A stretch of DNA of 64,000 nucleotides from Escherichia coli (GTDB lineage Bacteria > Pseudomonadota > Gammaproteobacteria > Enterobacterales > Enterobacteriaceae), in the NCBI RefSeq assembly GCF_003991155.1, contig NZ_CP031293.1; one strand, written 5' to 3'. The notes under the pieces are model-generated. The model did no database searches. It was not told the origin of the DNA and was given only the letters and a program-made list of their open reading frames with translations. Each line of letters begins with the position of its first letter. Position 1 is the stretch's first letter. The position numbers and the translations under genes are program-made. Below are positions 45,982 through 64,000 of the stretch, one piece after another.

Positions 45982-46431
45982 ATGAAGAAAGCAACACTTG
46001 TGATTGGCGTTATTGGCGCGGACTGCCATGCAGTAGGCAATAAAGTTCTGGACCGCGTTTTTAGCAACCATGGCTTCAGAGTCATTAATCTGGGCGTAAT
46101 GGTCAGCCAGGACGAATATATTGATGCGGCCATTGAAACTGGCGCTGACGCGATTGTCGTCTCCTCTATCTATGGGCATGGCGATATCGACTGTCTGGGC
46201 ATGCGCGAACGCTGCATCGAGCGTGGACTGGGGGACATCCTGCTCTATGTGGGCGGTAACCTGGTGGTCGGAAAACATGACTTCGCTGACGTGGAAACCA
46301 AATTCAAAGAGATGGGATTTGATCGCGTCTTTGCCCCAAGTCATGACTTAGAAGATGTTTGTCAGCTGATGGCACACGATATCAACCAACGTCATGACGT
46401 TGATACTCGTATTCTTGAAGAGGCAATCTGA
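45982..46431 (+). CDS. Glutamate mutase sigma (S) subunit, B12-binding
   Basis: [24 protein letters not shown]: DxHxxG cobalamin-binding motif; strong similarity to clostridial GlmS/MutS; aagga RBS; ORF track start 45919 is an extension. Confidence 0.9.
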
Positions 46432-47819: not shown

Positions 47820-47837
47820 CAATTAAGGCTGCAATCA

Positions 47838-49283
47838 ATGGAACTTCGAAATAAGAAATTAACCCATGACGAATTCATGACCGAGCGGCAACAGGTACTG
47901 AAAACCTGGGAAACCGGCAAGGATGTTGAAAACTTTGAAGATGGCGTTAAATACCAACAAACCATTCCTGAGCATAAACGCTTCTCTCTTGCCCTGCTGA
48001 AAGCAGACAAGGAAGGTAAAACTCTTAGCCAACCGCGCGCAGGCGTGGCGCTGATGGACGAACACATCGAACTACTGAAAACACTACAAGAAGAGTGCGA
48101 TCTGCTGCCGAGCACCATCGATGCATATACCCGTCTGAATCGGTACGAAGAAGCGGCTGTAGGGATTAAAAAATCCATCGAAGCCGGAACCTCTAAACTG
48201 AACGGTTTACCGGTCGTTAACCACGGCGTCGCAGCTTGCCGTCGCCTCACCGAAACTCTGCAAAAACCGCTACAGATCCGCCACGGCACGCCAGATGCGC
48301 GTCTGCTGGCTGAAATCTCGATGGCCAGCGGCTTTACCAGTTATGAAGGCGGCGGCATTTCCTACAATATTCCGTATGCCAAGCGCGTAACGCTGGAAAA
48401 ATCGATCCGCGACTGGCAGTACTGCGACCGTTTAATGGGGATGTATGAAGAACACGGGATCCGCATCAACCGCGAACCGTTTGGCCCACTAACGGGTACC
48501 CTGATCCCGCCGTTTATCTCGCACTCTATCGCGATAATCGAAGGCTTGCTGGCGCTGGAACAGGGTGTGAAATCTATCACCGTTGGTTATGGACAGGTCG
48601 GCAGCCTGACGCAGGATGTTGCGGCGATCCAGTCTCTGCGTGAACTTGCACACGAATATTTTCAGAGCTATGGCTATACCGACTATGAATTAAGTACCGT
48701 GTTTCACCAGTGGATGGGCGGCTTTCCGGAAGACGAATCGAAAGCGTTCGCTATTATCTCCTGGGGCGCAGCCGTCGCGGGGATGTCTGGTGCCACCAAA
48801 GTCATCACCAAAAGTCCGCACGAAGCCTGGGGCATCCCGACTGCCGCTGCCAACATTCAGGGGCTGAAAGCCTCCCGCCAGATGCTCAACATGGTCAACG
48901 AGCAGAAATTCCCGCCGTGCCCTGCGGTTGAACTGGAAATTGAACTGATTAAGAGCGAGGTTCGCGCGGTACTGAATAAAGTGTTCGAACTGGGTAATGG
49001 TGATATTGCGCGCGGTACGGTGCTGGCATTTGAAGCGGGCGTACTGGATGTGCCGTTTGCGCCAGCCGCCTGCAACGCGGGCAAAATTCTTCCGGTCCGT
49101 GACAACACCGGCGCGATACGCGTACTGGAAGCCGGAGCCGTTCCATTGCCAAAAGATATTCTCGACCTCCACCACGATTACGTTGCGGAACGCGCACGCT
49201 TTGAAGGACGCCAACCGACATTCCAGATGGTTGTAGATGACATCAATGCTGTATCCCACAGTAAATTAATAGGAAGACCATAA
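47838..49283 (+). CDS. Glutamate mutase epsilon (E) catalytic subunit
   Basis: MELRNKKLTHDEFMTERQQVLKTWETGKDV closely matches clostridial GlmE/MutE N-terminus; 481 aa. Confidence 0.9.
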   Translation: MELRNKKLTHDEFMTERQQVLKTWETGKDVENFEDGVKYQQTIPEHKRFSLALLKADKEGKTLSQPRAGVALMDEHIELLKTLQEECDLLPSTIDAYTRLNRYEEAAVGIKKSIEAGTSKLNGLPVVNHGVAACRRLTETLQKPLQIRHGTPDARLLAEISMASGFTSYEGGGISYNIPYAKRVTLEKSIRDWQYCDRLMGMYEEHGIRINREPFGPLTGTLIPPFISHSIAIIEGLLALEQGVKSITVGYGQVGSLTQDVAAIQSLRELAHEYFQSYGYTDYELSTVFHQWMGGFPEDESKAFAIISWGAAVAGMSGATKVITKSPHEAWGIPTAAANIQGLKASRQMLNMVNEQKFPPCPAVELEIELIKSEVRAVLNKVFELGNGDIARGTVLAFEAGVLDVPFAPAACNAGKILPVRDNTGAIRVLEAGAVPLPKDILDLHHDYVAERARFEGRQPTFQMVVDDINAVSHSKLIGRP

Positions 49284-50524
49284 TGAAAATAAAACAGGCT
49301 CTGTTCACCGCTGGCTACTCCTCATTCTATTTCGATGACCAGCAGGCGATAAAAAACGGAGCGGGTCATGACGGCTTTTTTTATACCGGGGAGCCGGTAA
49401 CACAGGGGTTTAACGCCGTTCGTCAGGCCGGGGAGTGCGTATCAGTACAGTTGATTCTGGAAAACGGCTCGGTCGCCGTAGGTGACTGTGCTGCCGTACA
49501 GTATTCCGGGGCAGGTGGTCGCGATCCACTGTTCCTCGCTGAGCACTTTATTCCGTTCCTCAACGACCATATCAAGCCATTACTGGTAGGCCGCGATGTG
49601 GATGCTTTCCTGCCGAATGCCCGTTTCTTCGACAAATTGCGTATTGACGGCAACTTGCTGCATACCGCCGTGCGCTACGGATTATCACAGGCGCTGCTTG
49701 ATGCTACCGCGCTGGCAACCGGCCGTCTGAAAACTGAAGTAGTTTGCGATGAATGGCAGTTGCCACGCGTGGCGGAATCCATTCCATTATTTGGTCAGAG
49801 CGGGGACGATCGATATATCGCCGTCGATAAGATGATCCTTAAGGGCATCGACGTGCTGCCCCATGCACTGATTAATAACGTCGAAGAGAAACTGGGCTTT
49901 AAAGGTGAAAAACTGCGCGAATATGTCCGCTGGCTGTCGGATCGTATTCTGAGCAAGCGCACCAGCGCACGCTACCACCCTACCCTGCACATCGATGTAT
50001 ACGGCACTATCGGTCTGATCTTCGATATGGATCCGCTTCGCTGTGCGCAATACATCGCCAGCCTGGAAAAAGAAGCGCAAGGCCTGCCGCTCTACATTGA
50101 AGGGCCGGTCGATGCCGGTAACAAGCCCGATCAAATTCGCCTGCTGACCGCGATTACCAAAGAGCTGACGCGCCTCGGTTCCGGCGTGAAAATTGTGGCC
50201 GATGAATGGTGTAACACCTACCAGGATATTGTTGATTTCACTGATGCCGCCAGTTGTCACATGGTGCAAATCAAAACCCCGGATCTGGGCAGTATTCACA
50301 ACATCGTCGATGCGGTTCTTTACTGCAACAGCCACAGCATGGAAGCGTACCAGGGCGGCACCTGCAATGAAACTGATGTCAGTGCCCGCACCTGTGTCCA
50401 CGTCGCCCTTGCCGCTCGCCCTATGCGTATGCTGGTAAAGCCAGGGATGGGCTTTGACGAAGGCCTCGATATCGTCTTCAACGAAATGAATCGTACTATC
50501 GCGCTGTTGCAGGCTAAGGATTAA
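49283..50524 (+). CDS. 3-methylaspartate ammonia-lyase (beta-methylaspartase)
   Basis: MKIKQALFTAGYSSFYFDDQQAIKNGAGHDGF..DCAAVQYSGAGGRDPLF matches clostridial methylaspartase; start overlaps E-subunit stop. Confidence 0.92.
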   Translation: MKIKQALFTAGYSSFYFDDQQAIKNGAGHDGFFYTGEPVTQGFNAVRQAGECVSVQLILENGSVAVGDCAAVQYSGAGGRDPLFLAEHFIPFLNDHIKPLLVGRDVDAFLPNARFFDKLRIDGNLLHTAVRYGLSQALLDATALATGRLKTEVVCDEWQLPRVAESIPLFGQSGDDRYIAVDKMILKGIDVLPHALINNVEEKLGFKGEKLREYVRWLSDRILSKRTSARYHPTLHIDVYGTIGLIFDMDPLRCAQYIASLEKEAQGLPLYIEGPVDAGNKPDQIRLLTAITKELTRLGSGVKIVADEWCNTYQDIVDFTDAASCHMVQIKTPDLGSIHNIVDAVLYCNSHSMEAYQGGTCNETDVSARTCVHVALAARPMRMLVKPGMGFDEGLDIVFNEMNRTIALLQAKD

Positions 50525-50527
50525 CAA

Positions 50528-51898
50528 ATGGCTCGTTCTTTTAAAGTCTTATCGCCAACGGCAATCCTCGGGTATGGATTCCCGGAAGAGAGCTTCCGCA
50601 AAGCGATGGCAGAATCGCCCGATCTGATCGCCGTTGATGCAGGCTCTTCCGATCCTGGCCCCCACTACCTCGGAGCGGGCAAACCGTTTACCGATCGCGC
50701 AGGGGTCAAGCGCGATCTGCGCTATATGATCACCGCAGGCGTGCAAAATAATATACCGGTGGTGATCGGAACAGCTGGCGGTTCTGGTGCCGCACCACAC
50801 CTGGAGTGGTGCCGAGAAATAATTCATGAGATTGCCCGGGAAGAGCGACTCGTGTTCTCGATGGCGCTGATCCCGGCAGACGTTGACAAAGCCATCGTCC
50901 ACCAGGCGCTGGATAACGGCAAAATCACGGCGCTGGATTTTGTCCCGCCGTTAACCCACGACGCGATTGACGAAAGTACGTATATCGTTGCGCAAATGGG
51001 CATCGAACCCTTCCAGCGGGCGCTGAAAGAAGGCGCGCAAGTGGTGCTGGGCGGGCGCGCTTACGACCCGGCCTGCTTTGCTGCGCTCCCGATCATGCAA
51101 GGCTTTGATGAAGGTCTGGCGCTGCATTGTGGGAAAATCCTTGAATGCGCGGCAATCGCCGCAACGCCCGGCTCAGGCTCTGACTGTGCGATGGGCATCA
51201 TTGATGACAACGGCTTTACGCTGAAGACATTTAATCCGAAGCGTAAATTTACCGAAACGTCAGCGGCTGCACACACACTGTATGAGAAATCCGATCCCTA
51301 CTTCCTGCCTGGACCTGGCGGCGTGTTGAACCTGAAAGGCTGCACATTTAAAGCGGTCAATGACGGCGAAGTGTACGTCAGCGGTTCTAAGCATGAAGAA
51401 ACGCCGTATGCCCTGAAACTGGAAGGTGCGCGACGGGTGGGCTTCCGCTGTCTGACCATCGCAGGAACGCGCGACCCGATCATGATCGCCGGGATCGATA
51501 AAATCATCGATGAAGTCAAAACCAGCGTTTCACGTAACCTGTCGCTCGACGATGACAGCATTCGCATCAATTTCCACCTGTACGGCAAAAACGGGGTGAT
51601 GGGCGACCATGAACCGATGCAAACTGCCGGGCATGAGCTGGGGATTGTCCTTGATGTAGTTGCACCGACCCAGGAAATTGCCAATAGCGTTTGCTCGCTG
51701 GTGCGCTCTACCATGCTGCACTACGGCTATGAAAACCGCATCGCTACCGCAGGCAATCTGGCGTTCCCGTTCTCCCCTTCTGATATCCAGGGCGGGCCGG
51801 TATACGAATTTTCCATATATCACCTGATTGAAGCCAACGACGCTCTGCGTTTTGATTTCCATATTGAACAGGTGACGCCAGAAGGAGTTCAGGCATGA
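50528..51898 (+). CDS. DUF1446-like (AtuA-like) protein of unknown function
   Basis: 456 aa; N-terminus ...VLSPTAILGYGFPEE resembles the DUF1446 family by recall; 3 nt after methylaspartase stop. Confidence 0.65.
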   Translation: MARSFKVLSPTAILGYGFPEESFRKAMAESPDLIAVDAGSSDPGPHYLGAGKPFTDRAGVKRDLRYMITAGVQNNIPVVIGTAGGSGAAPHLEWCREIIHEIAREERLVFSMALIPADVDKAIVHQALDNGKITALDFVPPLTHDAIDESTYIVAQMGIEPFQRALKEGAQVVLGGRAYDPACFAALPIMQGFDEGLALHCGKILECAAIAATPGSGSDCAMGIIDDNGFTLKTFNPKRKFTETSAAAHTLYEKSDPYFLPGPGGVLNLKGCTFKAVNDGEVYVSGSKHEETPYALKLEGARRVGFRCLTIAGTRDPIMIAGIDKIIDEVKTSVSRNLSLDDDSIRINFHLYGKNGVMGDHEPMQTAGHELGIVLDVVAPTQEIANSVCSLVRSTMLHYGYENRIATAGNLAFPFSPSDIQGGPVYEFSIYHLIEANDALRFDFHIEQVTPEGVQA

Positions 51899-52212
51899 AA
51901 CAGTCAATTGTCTCACTGGCGCAAGTCATTCGTTCGAAAAATGCCGGACCTTACGAACTGGTTTTAGATATTTTATTTAAAACGAAAGAAAACTATGAGC
52001 GAGTTAAATCATCAGGGCAATTAACCCCAGAACTGATTGCGCGCTTATATCATGTTGAACCTGACTTTATTCACCGTATTGTCTGGTTTGATCCTTCTAA
52101 CGCAGTAAAAATCGTCATGCCACGAGATATTATCTCCGGGAATGTAGGTGACAATGATGTCTATGGTGCACAGCAACATGCACCTTTATTAAATATGAGT
52201 TTCGATTTGTAA
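51895..52212 (+). CDS. DUF4387-like small protein (usual partner of DUF1446)
   Basis: 105 aa; ATG overlaps upstream stop (ATGA); family assignment by recall. Confidence 0.6.
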   Translation: MKQSIVSLAQVIRSKNAGPYELVLDILFKTKENYERVKSSGQLTPELIARLYHVEPDFIHRIVWFDPSNAVKIVMPRDIISGNVGDNDVYGAQQHAPLLNMSFDL

Positions 52213-52372
52213 AAATCCGAATACTTTTAGCCAACTGACATCCCGTCACTTATTGCAGTTCAACACTTCAGCTATTTGTAAGGTTGTAATAGCAGGTAGA
52301 TGCCTGAATCTCTATTCAGGCATCTACTTCTCCTGATTCTGATTTATCGCCGTGCACCTGATGGAGGAAAAA

Positions 52373-53653
52373 ATGAAGAAAATAAGTTTAACCACGATGA
52401 TTCTTTTGGCGCTGGTACTTGGAATGATTATCGGCGTAGTGCTCAATAACACTGCTTCACCGGAAACCGCAAAACTCTATGCGCAAGAAATATCGATATT
52501 CACGACGATTTTCTTACGACTGATAAAAATGATTATCGCTCCGTTAGTGGTCTCTACCCTGGTGGTAGGTATAGCTAAAATGGGAGATGCCAAAGCCCTT
52601 GGTCGTATTTTTTCTAAAACACTCTTTTTATTTATTTGCGCCTCATTGCTGTCAATTGCCTTAGGCTTGATAACGGTAAATTTCTTCATGCCAGGCACAG
52701 GAATTAATTTTGTTGCACACGGTGCCGAAACCACCGGAGTGGTCGCGTCAGAACCCTTTACACTAAAAGTATTTATTTCGCATGCTTTCCCCACCAGCAT
52801 TGTCGATGCCATGGCACACAATGAAATTTTGCAAATCGTGGTGTTCTCAATTTTCCTCGGCTGTAGCCTGACGGCGATTGGTGAGAAAGGCAGCGCCATC
52901 GTTCACGCCTTAGATTCGCTGGCACATGCCATGTTAAAGCTCACTGGCTACGTCATGCTCTTCGCTCCCCTGACCGTATTCGCCGCTATTTCAGCATTGA
53001 TTGCTGAACGAGGACTGGCAGTTATGGTGAGCGCCGGGATCTTTATGGGTGAATTTTATTTCACCATGTTGTTACTTTGGGTGCTGCTTATCGGTCTGGC
53101 CATCGTTTATGTCGGCCCCTGCATCAGACGCCTGACCCGTGCCCTTTCGGAACCCGCCCTGCTGGCATTTACCACATCCAGTTCTGAAGCGGCTTTTCCG
53201 GGAACGCTTGAAAAACTGGAGCAATTTGGCGTTTCCCCCAAAATTGCCAGCTTTGTCTTACCCATTGGCTACTCATTTAATCTCGTTGGATCAATGGCCT
53301 ACTGCTCCTTCGCCACAGTTTTCATCGCCCAGGCCTGCAATATCCATTTATCCATCGGTGAGCAAATCACCATGCTGTTGATCCTGATGTTGACCTCGAA
53401 AGGAATGGCTGGCGTACCACGCGCCTCAATGGTGGTTATCGCCGCCACGCTCAACCAGTTCAATATTCCGGAAGCGGGGCTGATCTTGCTGATGGGCGTT
53501 GATCCGTTCCTTGATATGGGGCGTTCCGCGACAAACGTCATGAGCAACGCAATGGGCGCTGCGATGGTGAGTCGGTGGGAAGGCGAACATTTCGGCGAGG
53601 GCTGTCGGGGTAAAGCATTAAAACCCAATGAATCGAACGTTGCTCTGCCCTGA
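52373..53653 (+). CDS. Dicarboxylate/amino acid:cation symporter (DAACS, GltP-like)
   Basis: 426 aa polytopic protein; ggagg RBS before ATG 52373; ORF track start 52352 is an extension. Confidence 0.8.
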   Translation: MKKISLTTMILLALVLGMIIGVVLNNTASPETAKLYAQEISIFTTIFLRLIKMIIAPLVVSTLVVGIAKMGDAKALGRIFSKTLFLFICASLLSIALGLITVNFFMPGTGINFVAHGAETTGVVASEPFTLKVFISHAFPTSIVDAMAHNEILQIVVFSIFLGCSLTAIGEKGSAIVHALDSLAHAMLKLTGYVMLFAPLTVFAAISALIAERGLAVMVSAGIFMGEFYFTMLLLWVLLIGLAIVYVGPCIRRLTRALSEPALLAFTTSSSEAAFPGTLEKLEQFGVSPKIASFVLPIGYSFNLVGSMAYCSFATVFIAQACNIHLSIGEQITMLLILMLTSKGMAGVPRASMVVIAATLNQFNIPEAGLILLMGVDPFLDMGRSATNVMSNAMGAAMVSRWEGEHFGEGCRGKALKPNESNVALP

Positions 53654-53760
53654 GGGGGATCTTAAGCAATCAGAAGCCAATGACTACGCATTTTTATAAG
53701 CCGGATCATGAAGTTAGACGGCAATTAAGTAAAACTAACGTTTAAGGTGAAAAGTGAAAT

Positions 53761-55413
53761 ATGTCCAAACCATTTATCTGGCAAGAACCGTTTCTACAAA
53801 ATAAAGACGGTACAGAATATACATTAATTAGCGATCAACATATTACAGTAACGGAATTAGACGGCGAAGAAGTGATAAAAATCGCTCCTGAAGCATTAAC
53901 GCTGCTTGCCCGGCAGGCATTTTATGAAGCCTCTTTTTTCTTACGTTCCGCTCATTTGCAACAGGTCGCCAGCATTCTTAACGATCCGCACGCCAGTAGT
54001 AATGATAAATACGTTGCGTTGCAGTTATTACGTAATGCTGAAGTCTCAGCAAAAGGGGTATTACCCAACTGTCAGGATACCGGCACCGCAACTATTGTTG
54101 CCAGTAAAGGGCAACAGATATGGACCGGAGGTAACGACGCTGAAGCCTTAAGCAAAGGCATTTACACCACTTTTCAGGAAAATAATCTGCGCTTTTCACA
54201 AAATGCGCCACTGGATATGTATACCGAAGTCAATACGCAAACCAATCTACCGGCGCAGATTGATATCAGCGCCGTCGCTGGTGATGAGTACCATTTTCTC
54301 TGTATTAATAAAGGGGGCGGCTCTGCCAATAAAGCCGCGCTTTATCAGGAAACCAAATCCCTATTGCAACCAGAAAAACTGACCGCATTTTTAATCGAAA
54401 AAATGAAATCGCTGGGCACCGCTGCCTGCCCGCCTTACCACATCGCCTTTGTCGTCGGAGGGCTTTCAGCCGATCAAACCTTAAAAGTTGCCAAGCTGGC
54501 CTCAACGAAATATTACGACAATTTGCCCACCAGCGGAAACGAGCAAGGACAAGCATTCCGTGATATTGAGCTGGAAAAAGTATTGCTCGAGGCCAGTCAG
54601 CAATTTGGTATTGGTGCGCAATTTGGGGGTAAATATTTCGCTCATGATATTCGCGTCATTCGTCTGCCGCGTCACGGTGGCTCTTGCCCGATAGCTATGG
54701 CGCTCTCCTGTTCTGCGGATCGCAATATCAAAGCAAAAATTAACAAGCACGGTATCTGGCTGGAAAAACTCGAACACAATCCGGGGCAATATATTCCAGC
54801 CTCACTGCGGGAAGAAAATCACGCGCAACATGTACAGCTGGATCTAAACCGTCCGTTGCGTGACGTGATGCAGGATCTCGCCAGATTACCGGTAGGCACC
54901 CGCGTGTCGTTAAGTGGTCCCATCGTAGTGGCGCGCGATATCGCCCACGCCAAAATAAAAGCGCGGCTGGATAGCGGCGAACCGATGCCGGATTACCTGA
55001 AGCATCATATTGTCTATTACGCTGGCCCGGCGAAAACACCGGAGAACATGGCCTGCGGTTCACTGGGTCCAACCACGGGCGGTCGAATGGACGGTTATGT
55101 CGATACCTTCCAGGCGGCTGGCGGCAGTCTGGTGATGTTATCGAAAGGTAACCGCAGCCAGCAGGTCACCGATGCCTGTCACAAACATGGCGGCTTCAAT
55201 CTGGGGAGTATTGGCGGTGCAGCTGCGTTACTGGCGCAAGAATATGTCAAAAGTCTGCGTTGCCTGGAATACCCGGAGCTGGGTATGGAAGCGGTGTGGA
55301 TGATGGAAGTGGAAAATTTACCCGCATTCATCCTGGTAGATGATAAAGGCAATAATTTCTTTAGTCAGTTTGAGCAGCAACACCGCTGCGCCAGTTGCCC
55401 TGCGGGACATTAA
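53761..55413 (+). CDS. fumD: Class I (Fe-S) fumarate hydratase-family enzyme, probable mesaconase
   Basis: 550 aa, FumA/FumB-like along full length; context with methylaspartase suggests mesaconate hydration; symbol follows the name used for the E. coli O157:H7 enzyme (recalled, not verified). Confidence 0.8.
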
Positions 55414-55422
55414 GGAAAATGA

Positions 55423-56025
55423 ATGGAAGCGCGAATTTCAACTGAACGGCATGTGCAGCGCCAGCAGAAATTGAAGGAACAGGTCGATACGCGCGTCGCG
55501 GCGGCGATAGAGAAAAAAGGGATTTTGATTGTTTTCACCGGCAACGGCAAAGGGAAATCCACTGCCGCGTTTGGTACTGTGACGCGCGCGGTGGGTCATG
55601 GCAAAACGGTGGGGGTTGCGCAGTACATCAAGGGGCAATGGGACAACGGCGAATACAACCTTCTCCAACCGCTGGGGGTTGAGTTTCATATTATGGGAAC
55701 CGGTTTTACCTGGGAGACACAGAACCGGCAAGCGGATATCGACGCGGCGAAAGAGGTCTGGTCGGAAAGCAAACGGATGCTGGCTGACAAGCGTTACGAC
55801 TTAGTGGTGCTTGATGAGCTGACCTATATGCTGGCTTACCATTATCTGGACACCGAAGAAGTGATCGCTTCTCTGCAAAACCGCCCGGCACAACAAAGTG
55901 TCATTGTCACCGGACGCGGTTGCCACAGTCAGATATTAAAAATGGCGGATACGGTCAGCGAAATCCGCCCCGTCAAACATGCTTTTGATAACGGCATTCA
56001 GGCGCAGCCGGGTATCGACTGGTAA
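55423..56025 (+). CDS. Cob(I)alamin adenosyltransferase (BtuR/CobA/CobO family)
   Basis: 200 aa; P-loop GNGKGKST; 9 nt downstream of the hydratase. Confidence 0.85.
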   Translation: MEARISTERHVQRQQKLKEQVDTRVAAAIEKKGILIVFTGNGKGKSTAAFGTVTRAVGHGKTVGVAQYIKGQWDNGEYNLLQPLGVEFHIMGTGFTWETQNRQADIDAAKEVWSESKRMLADKRYDLVVLDELTYMLAYHYLDTEEVIASLQNRPAQQSVIVTGRGCHSQILKMADTVSEIRPVKHAFDNGIQAQPGIDW

Positions 56026-56058: not shown

Positions 56059-56964
56059 TTACATCTCCTGCGGTACGACCGATTTCGCCAGCAACCATTC
56101 ACGAAATTGCTGCAAGTGCGGTGAGTCAGACTTCTCTTCCTGCCACGTCATAATAAAACGATTACCGGTACGAATAGGCACATCACAGGGAATCACCATA
56201 TCGCCACTATCCAAATCATGTTGAATAGCGAACCGTGGTAACAGCGCCACGCCGAGATTAGAGCGCACGGCGGCAATCAGCATTGAAAGCAAATCGAAAC
56301 GTGGTCCGTTATTGACCAGCGGACTGCTAACGCCAGATAAAGCAAACCACTCTTCCCAGCCAGTAATACGGGTGCTTTGATGCAGAAGTGGTAACTCAGT
56401 AAGCAGTTCTGCCACTGACAGTTTTTGATCGGACATTGCAAGCAAACTGCCGCTGCATACCGGCAAAATCTCCTCATCAAAGAGATATTCTACTTCCGCC
56501 CAGGGCGCGCAAAAATTTTCGCGCATAATGACAGCATCGTACTCCCGATTAAGAAAATCGCCGTTATTAGCTAAAGAATGAATATTAACAATAATATCGG
56601 GATGTAACTTTGTGAATTCATGTAAATTTGGGATTAACCAGTGGGTACTAAAAGTAGGATTAACGGCAAGTTCAATAACCTGAACCGTAGGCTGCCAGGT
56701 CATAATGGTATTGGTATCGCGTTCCAGCTTATTTAATGTTTCTTTTACTATCCCCAGGTAATACTTCCCTGCATCATTAAGAAAAATGCGTTTTTTAGAG
56801 TGTGAAAATAACGGAGTACGTAAAAATTCCTCCAGCGCACTTACTTGTCTGAATACTGCACTTTGGGTTAACGCTAACTCCTCTGCCGCTCTGGTATAAC
56901 TTTCATGACGTGCGACGACCTCAAAAGTCACCAGCAGTTCCGTTTTAGGTATTTTTCCTCGCAT
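56059..56964 (-). CDS. LysR-family transcriptional regulator
   Basis: 301 aa; N-terminal HTH FEVVARHESYTRAAEELALTQSAVFRQVSALE. Confidence 0.85.
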   Translation of the reverse strand: MRGKIPKTELLVTFEVVARHESYTRAAEELALTQSAVFRQVSALEEFLRTPLFSHSKKRIFLNDAGKYYLGIVKETLNKLERDTNTIMTWQPTVQVIELAVNPTFSTHWLIPNLHEFTKLHPDIIVNIHSLANNGDFLNREYDAVIMRENFCAPWAEVEYLFDEEILPVCSGSLLAMSDQKLSVAELLTELPLLHQSTRITGWEEWFALSGVSSPLVNNGPRFDLLSMLIAAVRSNLGVALLPRFAIQHDLDSGDMVIPCDVPIRTGNRFIMTWQEEKSDSPHLQQFREWLLAKSVVPQEM

Positions 56965-57002
56965 AATGCCTTCCCTTAAAAATAGTTGAAACTATCAAAA
57001 AA

Positions 57003-57026
57003 CCATTACTTATTGCTAAGTAATGG
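57003..57026. promoter_or_regulatory. Perfect inverted repeat, candidate operator upstream of LysR gene
   Basis: ccattacttattgctaagtaatgg (10-bp arms, 4-bp spacer) 40 bp upstream of LysR start; contains T-N11-A type LysR motif. Confidence 0.4.
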
Positions 57027-57234
57027 CAACCAAAGCAGCAATCAATATTTTATAAAAATCATGTTCGATATTTATAACCTGGTAAGCCTGGCGTGACAAT
57101 TGTCTCAATCAGACAATAATAATCCGAAAAGCAAAACGCCCTTCGGATTATTATGATTCAAGTTAAGTGAAGATTATTAAATTGATAGCAATTATCATAT
57201 CTATGGATATTATGACAAACAATCAACAAAAATT

Positions 57235-58905
57235 TTATTTTTGATTTATAGCATATCCTTCTAAGAATTTTTGCGAAGCTGCAATATCTGGGGTAAAGAC
57301 CCGATCCTGGTCGACAAACGGCACGACTTTTCTGTATTCGGTAAACATTGCTTTGGTGGATTTCCCTAATGCCAGTTGTGGATCGGCCTGCAACCGTAAA
57401 TCGAGAGCCTGTGCGGAATGCATCAGTTCAATGCCATAAATCACGTTCAGATTATCGACAACCTGTTTCAATCTTCTGGCCGCGTGGTCATTATTGGCAC
57501 CGGTATCTTCTATACCTCCGGCAACCGGTTGAATATCGAAAGAAACCGGGTTAGCGAGATCGACATTTTCCGCATGCAGCGCAACAAACGGGATATGTAA
57601 TGAACCGAAGCCATGACCTTTATTACCTGCTGCCGACAGGAAGCGTGACAAACCGGTAAAGTGATCATCTTCAAGATGCAGCGAGCGGCGCATACTGTTA
57701 TGTGAAACATGCACTAACGCCACGGTCAGACGCTGGGTGGCAAGCGCAACCGGTAACGATTCGAAATTCGCCGTCGGGAAGATCCCACCGCTGATTGCCC
57801 CATCTTTAACAAAATATTGCGCGACCTGACTGGAGTCCTGATACGCTTTGTCTGCATTCAGCACGGTTGCCGGGTTGTCATCGGAACTGTTGATCTGCAC
57901 GGTAATGGTATCTTCAGCATCGCGCAACGCGCGCATTGCCTCAGAAATGGTATACACCGTCGTTCTGAACGATAACGGATCCTGCAATGCACGTTTGTCA
58001 TGCTTATGCCATAAATAAGAACCACTTAACGCATCGCGAATCTCTTTAGCGGAATCAGCCAACTGCGGGAAAGGACGCACGGCGATCGACTGCGGCAGTA
58101 CCGGCGCGACATTGCCATTCAACGCTTCCAGACTCATAGCGAAAACCACCGGGCTGACATTCAGCAACTGACGTGCCGAACGAACAGCTTCGATAGCGTA
58201 GGCTGTCCCGACGCTGTTGTTCGATAAAATCGCCAGCATATCTTTACCCTGCGGTACCAGTGGCTTAAGTCCCACTTTCGCCAGCGCGTCACCACCGCTC
58301 ATTTGCACGCCATTTACTCGGGCTTTCCATTCCCCCATCATCACCAGACCAACGTGCGAAGCGAGCATAATATCCGCTGCGCCGATACTTCCCCGCACCG
58401 GAATTAACGGTGTAACGCCGCGATTAATAAATTCGGCATACAACTCGGCAATATAAGGCTGTGCGCCGGTTTGCCCATGCAGCATGGTATTTAAACGTAA
58501 TACCATTGAAAGGCGTGCCAGATAATCCGGTAACATCGGACCAACGCCCGCAGAATGGGCGCGCAGCGCGGCAGCATTAAATTTTTTCGACGCGTCAATC
58601 ACCTCAGGCGTTAAATTTCCTTTGGCATCAAATATGGGCTGATCTTTATTTAGCCCCACGCCCACGGTTAAGCCATAAACAGGCGTACCTGAATGCGCGG
58701 CAGTCATCACCAGATCATAACTTTTTTCCATGCGCTCCATGGCGTTCGACGCGATTTTGACGCCGTTATCACCTAATGCAATTGACCAGGCCTGGTCAAT
58801 GGAAAGATGTTCGCCATCCAGCGTAATGGTTGATTTCGCCATCGCAATGGAGCAAACGCTCCAGAGCACAACGGTGACAGTGACTCTTCGTATCAATCCT
58901 TTCAT
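57235..58905 (-). CDS. Histidine/aromatic ammonia-lyase family homolog with predicted signal peptide and disrupted MIO (Ala-Ser-Gly) motif
   Basis: 556 aa; aligns with HAL throughout (e.g. GEWKARVNG.., LSNNSVGTAYA) but has GSIGAADIMLASH where HAL has GSVGASGDLAPLAH; N-terminus MKGLIRRVTVTVVLWSVCSIAMA-KS is Sec-signal-like; aagga RBS 6 nt upstream. Confidence 0.8.
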   Translation of the reverse strand: MKGLIRRVTVTVVLWSVCSIAMAKSTITLDGEHLSIDQAWSIALGDNGVKIASNAMERMEKSYDLVMTAAHSGTPVYGLTVGVGLNKDQPIFDAKGNLTPEVIDASKKFNAAALRAHSAGVGPMLPDYLARLSMVLRLNTMLHGQTGAQPYIAELYAEFINRGVTPLIPVRGSIGAADIMLASHVGLVMMGEWKARVNGVQMSGGDALAKVGLKPLVPQGKDMLAILSNNSVGTAYAIEAVRSARQLLNVSPVVFAMSLEALNGNVAPVLPQSIAVRPFPQLADSAKEIRDALSGSYLWHKHDKRALQDPLSFRTTVYTISEAMRALRDAEDTITVQINSSDDNPATVLNADKAYQDSSQVAQYFVKDGAISGGIFPTANFESLPVALATQRLTVALVHVSHNSMRRSLHLEDDHFTGLSRFLSAAGNKGHGFGSLHIPFVALHAENVDLANPVSFDIQPVAGGIEDTGANNDHAARRLKQVVDNLNVIYGIELMHSAQALDLRLQADPQLALGKSTKAMFTEYRKVVPFVDQDRVFTPDIAASQKFLEGYAINQK

Positions 58906-58955
58906 TGTGTTTCCTTATCATGATGAGTTTAACAACGGGTTACTGCGACAACGTT

Positions 58956-59906
58956 TTAATTTGTTCTATCTGTTTTCCCCCGCCGGACAATACTGGTCAC
59001 CAGGCGAGCGGCAACTTTCGCAGTTAAATTATCGCGGTCCAGGTCCGGGTTAAGTTCGGCAATATCCGCAGCAATCAACTTCTCGCTACCGGCGATTAAA
59101 TTCACAATGGCTTCAGTAATATTTAACGGCACGCCTAACGGTGATGGAGCAGAAACACCGGGCGCCTGATAACCTGGTAAAACATCGAGACAAATCGTTA
59201 AATAAATGGCGTCACAAGCCTGAATATCTGCCGAGAGCGCATTAGCGATCTCATGCAAACCACGTTCAAATTGCAGAGATTCGTCCAGCCAATAACGCAC
59301 ACCGAGACAATCAGCGCGATCAAATAACGCCTGAGTATTGGCAAAACGACTTATTCCCAGCACGCGATAATGAAACGGTTTGCCATGCTGCGCGTTCCAC
59401 TCTTGCATCTGACGAAACGGCGTACCTGAATTGGCTTGTTCCGCCATCCGTAAATCAAAATGCGCGTCAAGGTTCACAATCAGTAACCGCTGAATATCCG
59501 GACGCGACTGCATAATCCCCTGAAATGTTCCCCACGCCACTTCATGACCGCCCCCCAGAACCACCGGTAAACTGCCGCGCGCAATGGCTGTAGATACGTT
59601 AGCCGCCAGACGATTTTGTGCGGATTCCAGCGCGTGGTCCTCGCTTTGTACATCGCCCATATCGAAAATAGCGCCTTCACAGAGCACTGGCATATTTCCC
59701 AACATGCTGCGCAACGCGCCCGGTCCGCCTGCTGCACCCGCTCGCCCATCATTACGTTGCACTCCGTCATCAACGGCAAAACCAATCAGCGTACAACCGC
59801 CGTGGCTTTGTTCACTAAACGGTTGCACATGCTGATGCCAGCGAGTGCTGATGCCGGTTTCCTGCGAGTCAACACGCCCACTCCACGGCAAAAATGTTTG
59901 CTTCAT
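58956..59906 (-). CDS. hutG: Formimidoylglutamase (arginase family)
   Basis: Start at MKQTFLPWSGRVD (ATG overlapping hutI stop); arginase-fold metal-binding motifs (LDAHFD). Confidence 0.8.
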   Translation of the reverse strand: MKQTFLPWSGRVDSQETGISTRWHQHVQPFSEQSHGGCTLIGFAVDDGVQRNDGRAGAAGGPGALRSMLGNMPVLCEGAIFDMGDVQSEDHALESAQNRLAANVSTAIARGSLPVVLGGGHEVAWGTFQGIMQSRPDIQRLLIVNLDAHFDLRMAEQANSGTPFRQMQEWNAQHGKPFHYRVLGISRFANTQALFDRADCLGVRYWLDESLQFERGLHEIANALSADIQACDAIYLTICLDVLPGYQAPGVSAPSPLGVPLNITEAIVNLIAGSEKLIAADIAELNPDLDRDNLTAKVAARLVTSIVRRGKTDRTN

Positions 59907-61117
59907 TACCAACTCCTTTTTCCGCCGACAATAAGCCCCTGGCAAGGCTGATGCCCAAACCAGTAAGCCAGTTCACGTGGATGATTAAGATCCCAGACCG
60001 CCATATCCGCCCGTAATCCCGGTGCAAGTTCACCCCGGTCAATAAGTCCAAGTGCCTTTGCCGCATTACGCGTAACGCCCTGAACGGCTTCCAGCGGCGT
60101 CATGCGAAACAGCGTACAGGCCATATTGATCATCAATGGCAATGACATATTGGGAGACGTTCCGGGATTATGGTCCGTGGAGATAGCAATCGGCACACCT
60201 GCGGCCCGCAGAGCGACAATCGGCGGCAGATGGGTTTCGCGCAGGAAGTAATAAGCACCGGGAAGCAAAACCGCCACTGTTCCAGCCGCTTTCATGGCGG
60301 CGATCCCCGACTCGCTCAGGTACTCCAGATGATCGCAGGAGAGTGCAGAAAACGCCGCTGCCAGCGCCGCGCCTTGCTGGTCAGAAAGCTGTTCGGCATG
60401 CAGTTTTACAGGTAATCCATAGCTTTGCGCTTTACTGAAAACGCGCCGTACCTGCTCTGGAGTAAAGGCGATGTTTTCACAAAAAGCATCAACTGCATCA
60501 ATCAGCCCCTGTTCATGCAACACGCACATCCAGTCGCAAAGCGCCGTAATGTAATCATCACTGCGCCCGGCAAACTCTGGCGGCAGGCTGTGCGCCCCGA
60601 GAAACGTAGACTGAATATGTAACCCGGTAGATTGCTGCAAGCGGCGGATCACGCGTAAACAACGTGCTTCATCTTCCAGCGTTAAGCCATAACCCGATTT
60701 GATTTCAAGCGTACTGACGCCTTCACGTTGCCAGTTTCGCAGTCGCTGCGCCGCCAGTTCAAACAACTGTGTTTCGCTGGCTGCCCGCGTGGCATTAACC
60801 GTAGATAAGATCCCGCCGCCCGCTCTGGCGATATCTTCATAAGCCACGCCTTGCAACCGCATCTCAAACTCGTTCGCCCTCTGGCCGCCATACACCAGAT
60901 GTGTATGACAATCCACCAGACCGGGTGTCAGCAACTTACCCTGTAGATCGTGTTCCTCTGTAATATCAGCCGTCAGTTCACGGGGGATCTGCGTGGCCTT
61001 CCCAAGCCAGACAATCGAGTCACCACGGCTGATTAATGCCCCCTTTTCAATCACTCCCCAATCGTTAGCGGAAAGCGTCGCCAGCGTGGTATTTCGCCAG
61101 AGCGTTAATGCACTCAT
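59906..61117 (-). CDS. hutI: Imidazolonepropionase
   Basis: Amidohydrolase HxH motif (CHTHLVYGG); ATG at 61117 overlaps hutD stop (ATGA); alternative GTG start at 61150. Confidence 0.85.
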   Translation of the reverse strand: MSALTLWRNTTLATLSANDWGVIEKGALISRGDSIVWLGKATQIPRELTADITEEHDLQGKLLTPGLVDCHTHLVYGGQRANEFEMRLQGVAYEDIARAGGGILSTVNATRAASETQLFELAAQRLRNWQREGVSTLEIKSGYGLTLEDEARCLRVIRRLQQSTGLHIQSTFLGAHSLPPEFAGRSDDYITALCDWMCVLHEQGLIDAVDAFCENIAFTPEQVRRVFSKAQSYGLPVKLHAEQLSDQQGAALAAAFSALSCDHLEYLSESGIAAMKAAGTVAVLLPGAYYFLRETHLPPIVALRAAGVPIAISTDHNPGTSPNMSLPLMINMACTLFRMTPLEAVQGVTRNAAKALGLIDRGELAPGLRADMAVWDLNHPRELAYWFGHQPCQGLIVGGKRSW

Positions 61118-61704
61118 AAGGATTTTTCCCCTCGTAGATAATAAAGCCACCAGCCCGCCAGCTCACCGACGGAGACTTTCTTCCGTGGTACGAAACGCCA
61201 GGGCCTGCCATCAGGTGCAACCAGCCATAACAACATATTTGCCGCGACAAACACCCTTTTCTTGCCGCTTATCCACTCCCCTTCACACAGCGTGAACAGG
61301 CCCGCTTGCGCAAGTGACGGAGGACGCCAGTCAACGGCACTTTGCACCCGCAACATCCCCGCATCGCCTTCCCGCGCCATAACATTCAGATCGCGAACCC
61401 CGCCGCCCAGCAGCTGGCAATCAGGCATAGCTTCTCCAGGGAAAATTAAGGCGGGATCGTGACGTTGCAGGTTGATGATCGAATCGGCAAACGTTAGCTT
61501 CACCCCTTCCCCGTCGAGAATCGCGAGGCCACGAACCACGCCAGGCCACGCTGAAAAAGAGCCATCCTGACTGACATTCGCCATACTGATGCGCAACAAC
61601 CAGTTTTCATCATCGGGCCAGGCAAGCAGCTGTCGGGTAAACCCCCCGCCGTTGCGCCACGGTTGCAGCGGCTTATCCATTGCAGAAATCAGCATCGGTT
61701 CCAT
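61114..61704 (-). CDS. hutD: HutD-family protein
   Basis: 196 aa with WRNGGGFTRQL motif typical of HutD/Ves family. Confidence 0.75.
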   Translation of the reverse strand: MEPMLISAMDKPLQPWRNGGGFTRQLLAWPDDENWLLRISMANVSQDGSFSAWPGVVRGLAILDGEGVKLTFADSIINLQRHDPALIFPGEAMPDCQLLGGGVRDLNVMAREGDAGMLRVQSAVDWRPPSLAQAGLFTLCEGEWISGKKRVFVAANMLLWLVAPDGRPWRFVPRKKVSVGELAGWWLYYLRGEKSL

Positions 61705-61705
61705 A

Positions 61706-63115
61706 TTAAGACTCGGGATAAATCGTATAAGCAGGAACGCAGGTGGTGCGTTTGGCCCACGGGTAATAGATAACGGCGGTAATTAACAAGCCGACAATCC
61801 AGGAGATATCCGCCCCATCCATCAGGACAGAAATGGGTCCCTGATACAGTTTTTGATTCAGGAAGGGGATCTGCACCAACACGCCTACGCCATAGCACGT
61901 CAAAGCGGTTTTGTTATACGCGCCATAACGCCCTTCCGGGGTATAAAGTGCCGGAATATCGGTTTTACCTTGTGAGATGAAGTAGTAGTCGATGAGATTA
62001 ATGGCGCTCCACGGCACAAATACCGTCAACAGCAGCAGAACGAAGTTTTTGAAATTATTCAAAAAATCTGCGCTTGCCGCCAGCGCGACGACCATCGACA
62101 ACAGCACGAACCCTACAACGTAGGCAGCACGAACACGCTGTGAAACCTGACTGCGATTATTAAAGGCGCTGACGGTCGCCAGAATCGACATAAAGCCACC
62201 GTAGGCATTCAAACAGTTCACCGTCAGTTTGCCGCAAACAATCACCGTATAAATCAGAATGGCGAAGGTGGGTCCGGCTAACTCACCCATAAAACCAACC
62301 TGATCCTTCAGGAAGTTAGCACCACAGGCCGCAACAAGCACGCCAAACGTCATGGCACATTGCGCGCCAAGCGTGGTTCCCAGAAAGGTGGCAAAGAAGA
62401 TTGATTTTGCTGGCGTATCAGAGGGTAAATAGCGGGAATAATCAGAGGCGTAAGGGGCAAACGTTAATTGCCATCCGGCAGAGAGAGCAATCGTTAATAA
62501 AAAGACCGACAGACTAAATGGCTTTTGACCAAATGCCGCAGCCACATCGTAGTGACCGCTAAGTTGAGTGGCCAGGTAAATAAACCCCAGAATACTTAAT
62601 ATCCCTGCAACACGGCCAACGACGTGAATAAGTTTATAACCGACCAATGCGATCATCGCGGTCAGCATGCCGAAAATAATAATTCCGGTCGATGCCGATT
62701 CGAAACCAAATATCCGGTTAATCGCCTGACCGGATAATACTGTACCCGTCGCGGCAAATCCAAGGTACATAATAATCACCATCAGTAACGGTAGCGCCGC
62801 TCCTTTAACGCCAAAGCGGATACGACTGGAGATCATCTGGGGTAATCCCAGCTTTGCCCCCTGCGACGAGTGCAATGCCATTACTGCACCACCAATAATA
62901 TTACCGATTAATAAACCAATTATTGCTGACATGGCTTCGGAGCCAAAAATAATCGCTAACGCGCCGTCCACCACAGCGGTAATTTGTAAGTTAGCACTTA
63001 GCCATAAAGTAAACTGACTGGATGGCGAGCCGTGGCGAGCAGACTCAGGAACGGCGTTAATCGTATTTGATTCTAATACTGGCTTTTTACTGCGGATAGG
63101 GCTGCTTGATTCCAT
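61706..63115 (-). CDS. NCS1-family (nucleobase/hydantoin-type cation symporter) permease
   Basis: 469 aa from ATG 63115 preceded by aggag RBS; ORF track TTG start at 63160 rejected. Confidence 0.8.
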   Translation of the reverse strand: MESSSPIRSKKPVLESNTINAVPESARHGSPSSQFTLWLSANLQITAVVDGALAIIFGSEAMSAIIGLLIGNIIGGAVMALHSSQGAKLGLPQMISSRIRFGVKGAALPLLMVIIMYLGFAATGTVLSGQAINRIFGFESASTGIIIFGMLTAMIALVGYKLIHVVGRVAGILSILGFIYLATQLSGHYDVAAAFGQKPFSLSVFLLTIALSAGWQLTFAPYASDYSRYLPSDTPAKSIFFATFLGTTLGAQCAMTFGVLVAACGANFLKDQVGFMGELAGPTFAILIYTVIVCGKLTVNCLNAYGGFMSILATVSAFNNRSQVSQRVRAAYVVGFVLLSMVVALAASADFLNNFKNFVLLLLTVFVPWSAINLIDYYFISQGKTDIPALYTPEGRYGAYNKTALTCYGVGVLVQIPFLNQKLYQGPISVLMDGADISWIVGLLITAVIYYPWAKRTTCVPAYTIYPES

Positions 63116-63278
63116 GAAAAAGTCTCCTGCAAAATGAGAGGTCATTTTTTGAAACAGCAATAGAGGGTCGGGAGATATTTCTCTCGACGATGTAAAAATA
63201 TTTTTTGATAATTATTGTTATACAGGCGAATTATTCTCCGCCTGTATTAGCGCAAATATTAAATGACGGCGTTAATAT

Positions 63279-64000
63279 TTAGCGAATCATCGGTAATTTC
63301 AGACCATAGTTTTTGGCACATTCAATTGCCGCTTCATAACCCGCATCCGCATGACGCATAACCCCGGACGCACAGTCATTCACCAGCACACGCGCCAGAC
63401 GTTTTTCGGCTTCTTCGCTACCATCGGCAACAATAACCATCCCGGCGTGTTGTGAATACCCCATCCCGACGCCGCCGCCATGATGCAGGGATACCCACGT
63501 TGCTCCCCCTGCAGTGTTGAGCAAACCGTTGAGCAACGGCCAGTCAGAAACCGCATCACTGCCATCAAGCATGCTTTCGGTTTCGCGGTTCGGGCTGGCG
63601 ACAGAACCGGTATCAAGATGATCGCGCCCAATCACAATCGGTGCTTTTAGTTCACCGTTGCGCACCATTTCGTTGAATGCCAGCCCCGCCAGGTGACGCT
63701 CACCAAGCCCCAGCCAGCAAATACGTGAAGGAAGTCCCTGGAAGGCAATGCGCTCGCGCGCCATATCCAGCCAGCGATGCGTCAGTACGTTATTGGGGAA
63801 CAACTCTTTAATTTTGGCATCAGTTTTATAGATATCTTCCGGGTCGCCAGACAGCGCCACCCAACGGAATGGACCTTTGCCTTCACAAAACATTGGACGA
63901 ATATAAGCCGGAACAAAGCCCGGGAAATCAAAGGCATTTTGCAGACCTTCGTTGAAGGCCACCTGGCGGATGTTGTTGCCATAATCGACAACCGGGATCC
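63279..64000 (-). CDS. hutU: Urocanate hydratase (urocanase), C-terminal part; 5' end beyond window
   Basis: Translation ..[26 protein letters not shown].. matches urocanase C-terminal region; reading frame continues to window end. Confidence 0.85.

Follow-up and report, generated by a model that had tools for sequence, protein, structure and literature searches.

What does a histidine utilization (hut) operon break down when it has no histidase? The question is posed by a cluster at the end of a 64,000-nt stretch of Escherichia coli DNA (RefSeq assembly GCF_003991155.1, contig NZ_CP031293.1; the whole stretch is referred to as the window). The minus strand carries, in this order, hutU, a permease gene of the NCS1 family, hutD, hutI, hutG and a gene of the histidine ammonia-lyase (HAL) family with a signal peptide (Table 1). 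An earlier note, made from the sequence alone, had described the same order and content, and both are borne out by model scores and by the RefSeq genes. The stop/start overlaps that it reported among hutD, hutI and hutG can also be read from the sequence: the hutD stop and the hutI start have an ATGA in common (61114-61117), and hutI and hutG have a TAATG in common (59906). The NCS1 stop and the first hutD ATG are 1 base apart. The composition of the cluster is unusual because the HAL-family gene belongs, as far as its sequence and modelled structure tell, to the ergothionase/histidine-betaine trimethylammonia-lyase family. Our favoured reading, which we give a probability of about 0.55, is that this lyase cleaves hercynine (histidine betaine) in the periplasm to urocanate and trimethylamine, that the permease imports the urocanate, and that the Hut enzymes feed a neighbouring B12-dependent glutamate fermentation.

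The lyase of the cluster

The lyase belongs to PF00221 and has the fold of HAL and phenylalanine ammonia-lyase (PAL). Among relatives of solved structure, the Treponema denticola ergothionase is the best match in sequence (6s7j; E 5.5e-85, 35% identity), with HAL at about 1e-50. The AlphaFold model of the lyase has a predicted local distance difference test (pLDDT) score of 83.8, and its best match in the PDB is again 6s7j (template modelling (TM) score 0.91, E 1.6e-32). HAL, PAL and tyrosine ammonia-lyase (TAL) carry the loop GSVGASGDLAP, the precursor of the 4-methylideneimidazole-5-one (MIO) group, whereas the lyase has GSIGAADIML and ergothionase has SSIGEGDITT. The loop of the lyase, like that of ergothionase, is one residue shorter and has no Ala-Ser-Gly, so MIO cannot form. 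On HutH models the lyase scores 281-298 bits, below the cut-offs of 524-539, and a true HutH from a canonical operon scores 682-746. No ergothionase-type model was returned for the lyase from NCBIfam, which probably explains its generic RefSeq name, 'HAL/PAL/TAL family ammonia-lyase'. The label 'HAL-like' in the earlier note is apt for the fold; the loop, the failure on the HutH models and the kinship with ergothionase take the protein out of HAL itself. Sequence and modelled structure place it in the MIO-less trimethylammonia-lyase family, not among the histidases.

Characterised members of this family differ in substrate. Swoo_3913 of Shewanella woodyi is periplasmic and converts hercynine to urocanate and trimethylamine; histidine is not deaminated (bioRxiv 10.1101/2025.08.13.670108). 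In S. oneidensis, SO_3057 is a periplasmic ergothionase and SO_3299 takes N-pi-methyl histidine betaine (bioRxiv 10.64898/2026.04.22.720169). The types are separated at the residue that holds the thiolate of ergothioneine in the Treponema enzyme, Lys384 (bioRxiv 10.1101/2025.08.13.670108; 10.64898/2026.04.22.720169). Its equivalent is Asn in Swoo_3913 and Gln (Gln434) in SO_3299, and ergothioneine is not the main substrate of the characterised members without the Lys (same two preprints, from one laboratory).

The E. coli lyase keeps the catalytic base Tyr77, the carboxylate ligands Gln308, Arg314 and Asn339, and the imidazole ligands His117 and Glu466. The numbers of Tyr77, His117, Gln308, Arg314 and Asn339 are identical to those given for Swoo_3913, whose Glu467 is matched by Glu466. 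Where the Treponema enzyme has Lys384, the E. coli lyase has Ile438, so that the Lys of a strict ergothionase is missing; at the equivalent of position 438, 103 of the 122 aligned closest homologues have Lys. The ratio of nonsynonymous to synonymous substitution rates (dN/dS) is 0.04 against an orthologue with 85% identity and 0.05 when two E. coli alleles are compared, values that show strong purifying selection on the lyase. We infer that it eliminates trimethylamine from an N-alpha-trimethylated histidine derivative. MIO would not be needed, since trimethylamine is a good leaving group, and HutH would not be needed, since histidine would not be the substrate. The neutral Ile at the Lys position and the canonical urocanate enzymes encoded downstream in the pathway point to hercynine as the substrate. 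The earlier note had suggested that the substrate may be an imidazole compound other than histidine, and had named ergothioneine among the compounds to test; the general suggestion is probably right.

The N-terminus of the lyase (MKGLIRRVTVTVVLWSVCSIAMA, followed by Lys) has, by inspection and hydropathy, a basic n-region, a hydrophobic core and an A-x-A end. These 23 residues are an extension relative to the cytoplasmic homologues of Treponema and Enterococcus, and they form a detached, low-confidence helix in the AlphaFold model. An AGGAA ribosome-binding site lies 5 nt 5' of the lyase ATG; no such site was found before Met22, which is the start in some database entries. In the 85% orthologue the frame is preserved and the hydrophobicity of the signal is kept despite a changed sequence. 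That orthologue has no twin arginine, so the signal is read as Sec-type. The lyase is thus predicted to be exported to the periplasm via a Sec-type signal peptide; the protein that the earlier note called secreted does carry an export signal.

The same reaction is predicted as for Swoo_3913, which is also a periplasmic, MIO-less lyase of the HAL fold with the same catalytic Tyr, the same carboxylate and imidazole ligands and a neutral residue at the Lys position. However, that residue is Asn in Swoo_3913 and Ile in E. coli, and the fate of the product would differ. In Shewanella, urocanate is reduced in the periplasm by the reductase Swoo_3912 and serves as a respiratory electron acceptor, whereas in E. 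coli the permease and HutU, HutI and HutG would lead to assimilation. No periplasmic urocanate reductase dependent on flavin adenine dinucleotide (FAD) or flavin mononucleotide (FMN) was found in the E. coli island. The ergothionases Td_ETL (6s7j) and SO_3057 are closest by sequence and fold and have the shorter MIO-less loop, and the SO_3057 type also shares the signal peptide. They differ in having Lys where E. coli has Ile438 together with the co-varying Glu412, Gly432, Ser435 and His437. The closest species-level loci mostly pair the lyase with flavocytochrome c, whereas the E. coli lyase is paired with hut genes and with no thiourocanate-specific enzymes.

Predicted urocanate uptake, the Hut enzymes and the island

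The part of HutU encoded in the window scores 437 bits on the hutU equivalog. The full protein of 565 aa, taken from identical genomes, scores 934 (cut-off 375) and is 81-83% identical to HutU of canonical hut operons. By sequence, HutU, HutI and HutG are canonical Hut enzymes. As HutG is a formimidoylglutamase, the route is the four-step enteric one, which ends in glutamate and formamide.

The permease matches an NCS1 subfamily model below its cut-off, and has relatives with 60-72% identity across Proteobacteria and Actinobacteria. Orthologues with 67-72% identity adjoin hutU in operons with HutC and MIO-bearing HutH. One such context is a metagenomic contig with a G+C content of 49%, which has hutC beside hutU-NCS1-hutH-hutG, the hutH product having Ala-Ser-Gly. 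Comamonas testosteroni has hutH and hutC, then NCS1-hutU-hutD-hutI. In Nocardia the orthologue adjoins a GntR/UTRA regulator, and on an Erwinia contig it has no hut neighbours. In Pseudomonas, HutTu, encoded beside hutU, is a urocanate-specific transporter (PMC12977541, PMC8034625). By analogy with the orthologues in canonical hut operons, the E. coli permease probably imports urocanate. The hydantoin type of permease put forward in the earlier note is set aside, as the orthologues adjoin hutU in canonical hut operons and the urocanate role of HutTu fits. The dN/dS of the permease is 0.03 against an orthologue with 85% identity, which in another enterobacterium stays paired with the 85% orthologue of the lyase. 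That enterobacterium, which holds the nearest relative of the lyase outside Escherichia, has the NCS1-lyase pair and a decayed piece of hutU, and is without hutD, hutI and hutG. Because the pair is kept where hutU has decayed, we argue that permease and lyase work together.

The E. coli cluster resembles the hut loci of Pseudomonas and Comamonas in its HutU (81-83% identity), in a permease (67-72% identity) encoded beside hutU, and in the presence of HutD and HutI. Those loci have an MIO-bearing HutH (GSVGASGDLAP), a GntR/UTRA HutC and often the five-step HutF route, whereas the E. coli cluster has neither HutH nor HutC and has the formimidoylglutamase HutG. The enteric hutUH-hutIGC operons of Klebsiella and Salmonella share the four-step pathway with HutU, HutI and formimidoylglutamase HutG. 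They contain HutH and HutC, with no NCS1 permease or HutD within the operon and no exported lyase.

Under the favoured reading, hercynine (N-alpha-trimethylhistidine) or a close relative would pass the outer membrane. The exported lyase would then remove trimethylamine in the periplasm, releasing it and leaving trans-urocanate for uptake by the NCS1 permease. HutU, HutI and HutG, with HutD as an accessory, would convert urocanate to glutamate and formamide. Glutamate would be carried on to citramalate by glutamate mutase (with its adenosylated cofactor via cobO), methylaspartate ammonia-lyase and FumD. Placing the first step in the periplasm would spare the cell a betaine importer and let the pathway reuse a urocanate permease. 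The link from the Hut enzymes to the glutamate-fermentation module is suggested by their adjacency, by a shared island history and by analogy with Clostridium tetanomorphum, which ferments histidine through glutamate by this route.

Many E. coli chromosomes match the region at 100% identity, and these identical genomes show what lies outside the window. Upstream of hutU there is an AT-rich gap of 758 bp, then a divergent RtcB-family gene, sucD and sucC. The other flank consists of the LysR gene, cobO, fumD, a GltP/DctA-like transporter, DUF4387, an AtuA-like gene, methylaspartate ammonia-lyase, glmE, glmL, glmS, an IS1 and two hypothetical genes, followed by cydA. The island is accessory and lies between sucD and cydA, where it takes the place of mngRAB, which K-12-like strains such as E. 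coli W have at this site. The earlier note had found neither a canonical cytoplasmic HutH nor a GntR-type HutC in the window, which holds for the extended sequence as well. It had allowed that both might lie just outside the window, and that hutH and hutC immediately upstream of hutU would make this an ordinary hut operon; the extended sequence shows otherwise. No GntR-family gene or hutC is present anywhere between sucD and cydA. No hutH was found in the island or in the sequence flanking it; no direct search was made for a solitary hutH in the rest of the genome. Of the components of a canonical Hut operon, the cluster has HutU, HutI and a formimidoylglutamate-cleaving enzyme, and lacks the MIO-dependent HutH and HutC.

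The RtcB-family neighbour, divergent from hutU, encodes 465 aa, of which only residues 214-464 match RtcB models, all below the cut-offs. There is no RtcA or RtcR nearby, and no PADLOC match marks the RtcB-like gene as a defence gene. In the 758-bp gap between hutU and rtcB, 120-150 bp upstream of hutU and outside the window, lies a perfect 10-bp inverted repeat, TAGTGAATAT-N13-ATATTCACTA, a candidate operator for an unnamed regulator.

Of 5426 complete E. coli genomes, 143 (~2.6%) have the full hut module, with intact reading frames in the genomes examined; CE10 (NC_017646) and 2016C-3878 are examples of strains with the island. A sensitive DNA search of the same genomes with hutU found the gene in 169, in 145 as the chromosomal gene of the island and in 24 as a plasmid gene with 72-75% identity. 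There was never more than one copy per genome, and therefore no second, hidden canonical hutUH operon in the island-bearing strains. The plasmid gene is of the kind found on E. coli plasmid pABWA45_1 (NZ_CP022155.1, 13185-32690), which carries a complete canonical five-step hut system: hutG (deformylase type), hutI, hutC, hutF, hutD, an ABC transporter, hutH and hutU. Such systems occur on IncF-type plasmids of E. coli, Klebsiella and Enterobacter, and the plasmid-borne hutU (24/5426) never co-occurs with the chromosomal island. The two E. coli alleles of the island module differ unevenly. Synonymous divergence is 0.19 for the lyase, 0.084 for hutU and 0.068 for hutI, and 0.007-0.009 for NCS1, hutD and hutG, which suggests recombination inside the module.

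The glutamate-fermentation module consists of glmS, glmL, glmE, methylaspartate ammonia-lyase, the AtuA-like gene, DUF4387, the GltP/DctA-like transporter, FumD (class I fumarase/mesaconase) and cobO. NCBIfam matches were obtained for FumD, cobO and the transporter. The AtuA-like and DUF4387 genes (50528-52212) have overlapping ends and lie between methylaspartate ammonia-lyase and the transporter. The module is part of the cluster known from E. coli O157:H7, which has the same LysR, cobO, fumD, transporter, mal and glmSLE. The biochemistry of FumD has been described in a publication without hut genes in the cluster, in which the inducing conditions of the cluster and the way in which citramalate is cleaved were not found (PMC4682846). 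Its authors, Kronen and Berg, assigned the LysR-type regulator as the putative regulator of the glutamate-fermentation cluster (PMC4682846).

Our comparisons agree with that assignment. The stretch from fumD through cobO and LysR up to the lyase stop codon is found in 1127 of the 5426 genomes, O157:H7 included, and most of these are without the hut module. Over the fumD-cobO-LysR part, O157:H7 is 97.8% identical to the island. Because LysR is common to these 1127 genomes, it probably regulates the glutamate-fermentation module rather than hut. We rejected LysR as a hut regulator on this distribution and on the arrangement in O157:H7. The LysR-type regulator that the earlier note placed beside the cluster is present on the same strand, but is not evidence for a LysR-controlled hut operon. 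In O157:H7 (H6437), 667 bp separate LysR from sucD. This gap holds four remnants: the 3'-terminal 137 bp of the lyase gene, at 87.6% identity; 62 bp of internal lyase sequence; 57 bp of internal rtcB sequence; and the rtcB 3' end. The whole hut module and rtcB, the RtcB-like neighbour described above, were therefore deleted together in that lineage, as opposed to having been gained by the others.

Gut bacteria form trimethylamine, whose oxidation yields trimethylamine N-oxide, a marker associated with cardiometabolic disease. Both ergothioneine and hercynine are taken in with the diet, and what microbes do with them is under active debate. According to a paper of 2026, ergothionase-type enzymes are rare in gut bacteria and none occurs in E. 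coli (PMC13405746). However, about 2.6% of complete E. coli genomes carry a member of this family, of an uncharacterised specificity class and apparently wired to assimilation, not to respiration. The lyase gene is a concrete candidate for strain-dependent trimethylamine production by E. coli, and its pathway is a candidate natural feed for a poorly understood glutamate-fermentation island of pathogenic enterobacteria. The cluster would also be an example of a Hut pathway that has been re-plumbed, with its first enzyme swapped and the step moved outside the cytoplasm. The chemistry of the pathway and the enzyme family are already known, the family only recently. The specificity subclass is new, as is the predicted link, in a subset of E. 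coli, between a periplasmic lyase that releases trimethylamine and a pathway of urocanate uptake and Hut enzymes. Searches of the literature on hercynine with hutU or urocanase, and on S-methyl-thiourocanate hydratase, returned nothing about this cluster.

Substrate of the lyase and competing readings

We scanned relatives of the lyase in one genome per species, which gave 80 loci. A flavocytochrome c FAD subunit adjoins the lyase in about 74 of them, mostly with a small multihaem cytochrome; this pairing is the respiratory arrangement described in the preprints (bioRxiv 10.1101/2025.08.13.670108; 10.64898/2026.04.22.720169). Three loci, all from Enterococcus, have a PrdR-like sigma-54 regulator, a coenzyme A (CoA) transferase, a monocarboxylate-type MFS transporter and a FabK-like reductase. 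The hut arrangement was seen in one locus only, that of an E. coli-like metagenome bin, and is the sole case of assimilation wiring among these 80 closest species-level loci. Residues at positions 437-438 were counted in the 84 lyase matches of the 80 loci. Gln-Lys is the pair in most loci (63 matches), Glu-Asp occurs in Sutterella and Parasutterella (16 matches), His-Val in Enterococcus (3 matches) and His-Ile in E. coli (1 match). The His-Ile/Val proteins also share Glu412, Gly432 and Ser435, where the Lys type has Ser, Ala and Ala. In a search of representatives at 50% identity, the MIO-less group was large and diverse.

Several observations weigh against the favoured reading. Enzyme activity, localisation and transport are argued here from sequence. 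Swoo_3913 was represented in our comparisons by a Gln-Asn Shewanella proxy (P0244/P0391), recognised because it has the listed residues one position away from the reported numbers. The E. coli lyase shares 42% identity with this proxy, and 55-63% with periplasmic, ergothionase-like proteins that have the Lys. With the diagnostic columns removed, a neighbour-joining tree nests the His-Ile/Val proteins inside the Gln-Lys periplasmic clade, and the Gln-Asn type branches elsewhere. The grouping of the His-Ile/Val proteins has a bootstrap of 40%, and no single origin is claimed for them. On these alignments, the E. coli lyase and the characterised hercynine lyase Swoo_3913 are not orthologues; the former represents a branch of its own, uncharacterised, in which the Lys was lost. 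A missing Lys is not enough to predict hercynine, as SO_3299 is without it and takes N-pi-methyl histidine betaine (bioRxiv 10.64898/2026.04.22.720169). The signature Glu412/Gly432/Ser435/His437/Ile-Val438 marks an uncharacterised subclass, in which a C2 substituent could conceivably be bound by His437. Other members of the subclass are found in settings other than hut, namely the Enterococcus loci with the CoA-transferase and FabK-like reductase, and a hydroxyproline cluster with a 67% identical homologue. Most E. coli with the glutamate-fermentation module are without the hut module, and the O157:H7 genome examined bears the deletion scar. Finally, the likeness of the permease to Pseudomonas HutTu (PA5099), presumably also NCS1-type, is drawn by analogy from gene context.

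The alternative that survives best, unlikely as we hold it to be, is that the lyase acts on another N-alpha-trimethylated histidine derivative, such as S-methyl-ergothioneine, N-pi- or N-tau-methyl hercynine, selenoneine or oxidised ergothioneine, and that the Hut enzymes handle a substituted urocanate or only the ordinary one. The His-Ile/Val subclass does differ from the characterised Gln-Lys and Gln-Asn types and from the Gln434 type of SO_3299, whose substrate is itself a warning that Lys loss does not imply hercynine. Ile or Val, being hydrophobic, could offer a packing surface for a methyl or S-methyl group, and the Enterococcus enzymes of the same subclass stand in another pathway context. 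However, HutU, HutI and HutG are canonical by curated models, with HutU 81-83% identical to ordinary HutU, as given above. The full HutU scores 672 against a cut-off of 880 on the S-methyl-thiourocanate hydratase model, and His117 and Glu466, which bind the imidazole, are unchanged.

A more far-reaching version of the favoured reading, in which hercynine is widened to histidine betaines in general, is improbable in our view. It would have a minority lineage of E. coli (and E. marmotae) make periplasmic trimethylamine from dietary or fungal histidine betaines with an MIO-less lyase of new specificity, and urocanate uptake and Hut feed the B12-dependent glutamate fermentation. The betaine or urocanate would be the missing input of the island and possibly its inducer, and the lyase gene would be the basis of the 1962 'ergothionase from Escherichia coli'.

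Decidedly improbable is a third possibility, that the lyase is a periplasmic ergothionase which converts ergothioneine to thiourocanate and trimethylamine, with thiourocanate, or urocanate derived from it, imported and degraded. An ergothionase activity was reportedly found in E. coli in 1962, and this gene would be behind it. The nearest solved structure and the nearest sequence relatives are of the ergothionase type, the Ile-type lyase is the sole family member found in the 5426 complete E. coli genomes, and no E. coli ergothionase gene is known according to the paper of 2026 (PMC13405746). His437 and Glu412, which co-vary with the loss of the Lys, might also replace its role. Yet Ile replaces the Lys on which ergothionase activity depends in the Treponema enzyme, and HutU scores as a urocanase; on the thiourocanate hydratase model it reaches 670, short of the cut-off of 930. 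The island has no desulfhydrase, hydantoinase, thiourocanate reductase or flavocytochrome. E. coli W, considered as a possible source of the 1962 activity, has sucD-mngRAB-cydA at this locus and no island. An ordinary histidine operon with a secreted histidase, or a urocanate-only operon with a non-functional HAL relic, is very improbable, for although the other Hut enzymes are all canonical, the gene order resembles the hutU-permease-hutH of other bacteria, most genomes with the glutamate module lack the hut module and O157:H7 bears its deletion scar, the lyase has no Ala-Ser-Gly from which to form MIO, its characterised MIO-less homologue does not deaminate histidine, its dN/dS is 0.04-0.05 with an intact frame in 143 genomes, and all its catalytic residues are conserved.

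Coordinates and minor observations

The features of the locus are collected in Table 1.

Table 1. Features of the hut-like cluster and its flank, by position in the window
Feature	Position	Strand	Basis or remark
hutU, urocanate hydratase, 3' part	63279..64000	-	cut by window end; ~976 further bases outside
NCS1-family permease, predicted urocanate importer, HutTu-like	61706..63115 (RefSeq start)	-	Pfam PF02133
hutD, HutD/Ves family	61114..61704; RefSeq start 61695	-	PF05962; weak Ves match
hutI, imidazolonepropionase	59906..61117	-	TIGR01224, 451 bits vs cut-off 298
hutG, formimidoylglutamase	58956..59906	-	TIGR01227, 292 bits vs cut-off 229
MIO-less lyase, predicted member of ergothionase/histidine-betaine trimethylammonia-lyase family, His437-Ile438 subclass, 556 aa	57235..58905	-	
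Lyase signal peptide, codons 1-23, MKGLIRRVTVTVVLWSVCSIAMA, predicted cleavage after AMA	58837..58905	-	
Lyase codons 172-181, GSIGAADIML, at the place of the MIO precursor	58363..58392	-	alignments
Lyase codons His437-Ile438, predicted specificity position	57592..57597	-	
Perfect 13-bp inverted repeat ATAATAATCCGAA-N13-TTCGGATTATTAT	57116-57154		between lyase stop codon and hairpin
Terminator-like hairpin, 11-bp stem and T run, between lyase gene and LysR gene	57002..57027	-	consensus match
LysR-family regulator gene, GcvA-like (below cut-off)	56059..56964	-	
B12-dependent glutamate-fermentation module	45982..56025	+	RefSeq annotation of identical genome

The stretch around the 13-bp inverted repeat between the lyase gene and the hairpin aligns in O157:H7 too, with 87.6% identity. 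A consensus scan of the region gave 18 promoter-like sites (14.4 +/- 4.1 in shuffles) and 16 terminator-like sites (12.1 +/- 3.6 in shuffles), neither above expectation. An Rfam scan of 31 kb around the cluster found no riboswitch and no other RNA family.

A few relatives of the lyase deserve mention in their own right. The His-Val lyases of Enterococcus have no signal peptide, and their genes seem to form an operon with those for a PrdR-like sigma-54 activator, a FadX-like CoA-transferase, an MFS transporter of the lactate type and a FabK-like enoyl reductase. This content looks suited to using the enoate product reductively, in a Stickland-like way, via a CoA ester. The 67% identical His-Val lyase has a signal peptide and is encoded in a cluster for hydroxyproline catabolism, with Pro_racemase, DAO-type dehydrogenase subunits, DHDPS-like, aldehyde dehydrogenase, Ldh_2 and OprD porin genes, and no hut genes within 10 kb. 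Escherichia sp. MOD1-EC7003 and E. albertii have a periplasmic lyase of the Lys type (ergothionase-like), with flavocytochrome c adjoining. The gene of Escherichia sp. MOD1, used as a query for a Lys-type ergothionase gene in the 5426 complete E. coli genomes, gave only weak matches to the Ile-type gene. A further class of lyases occurs in Sutterella, Parasutterella and Turicimonas, with Glu-Asp at the specificity positions and Asp at 412. These adjoin a different FAD reductase, which is 30-42% identical to the flavocytochrome subunit that served as probe, and several genomes hold lyases of both the Glu-Asp and the Lys class.

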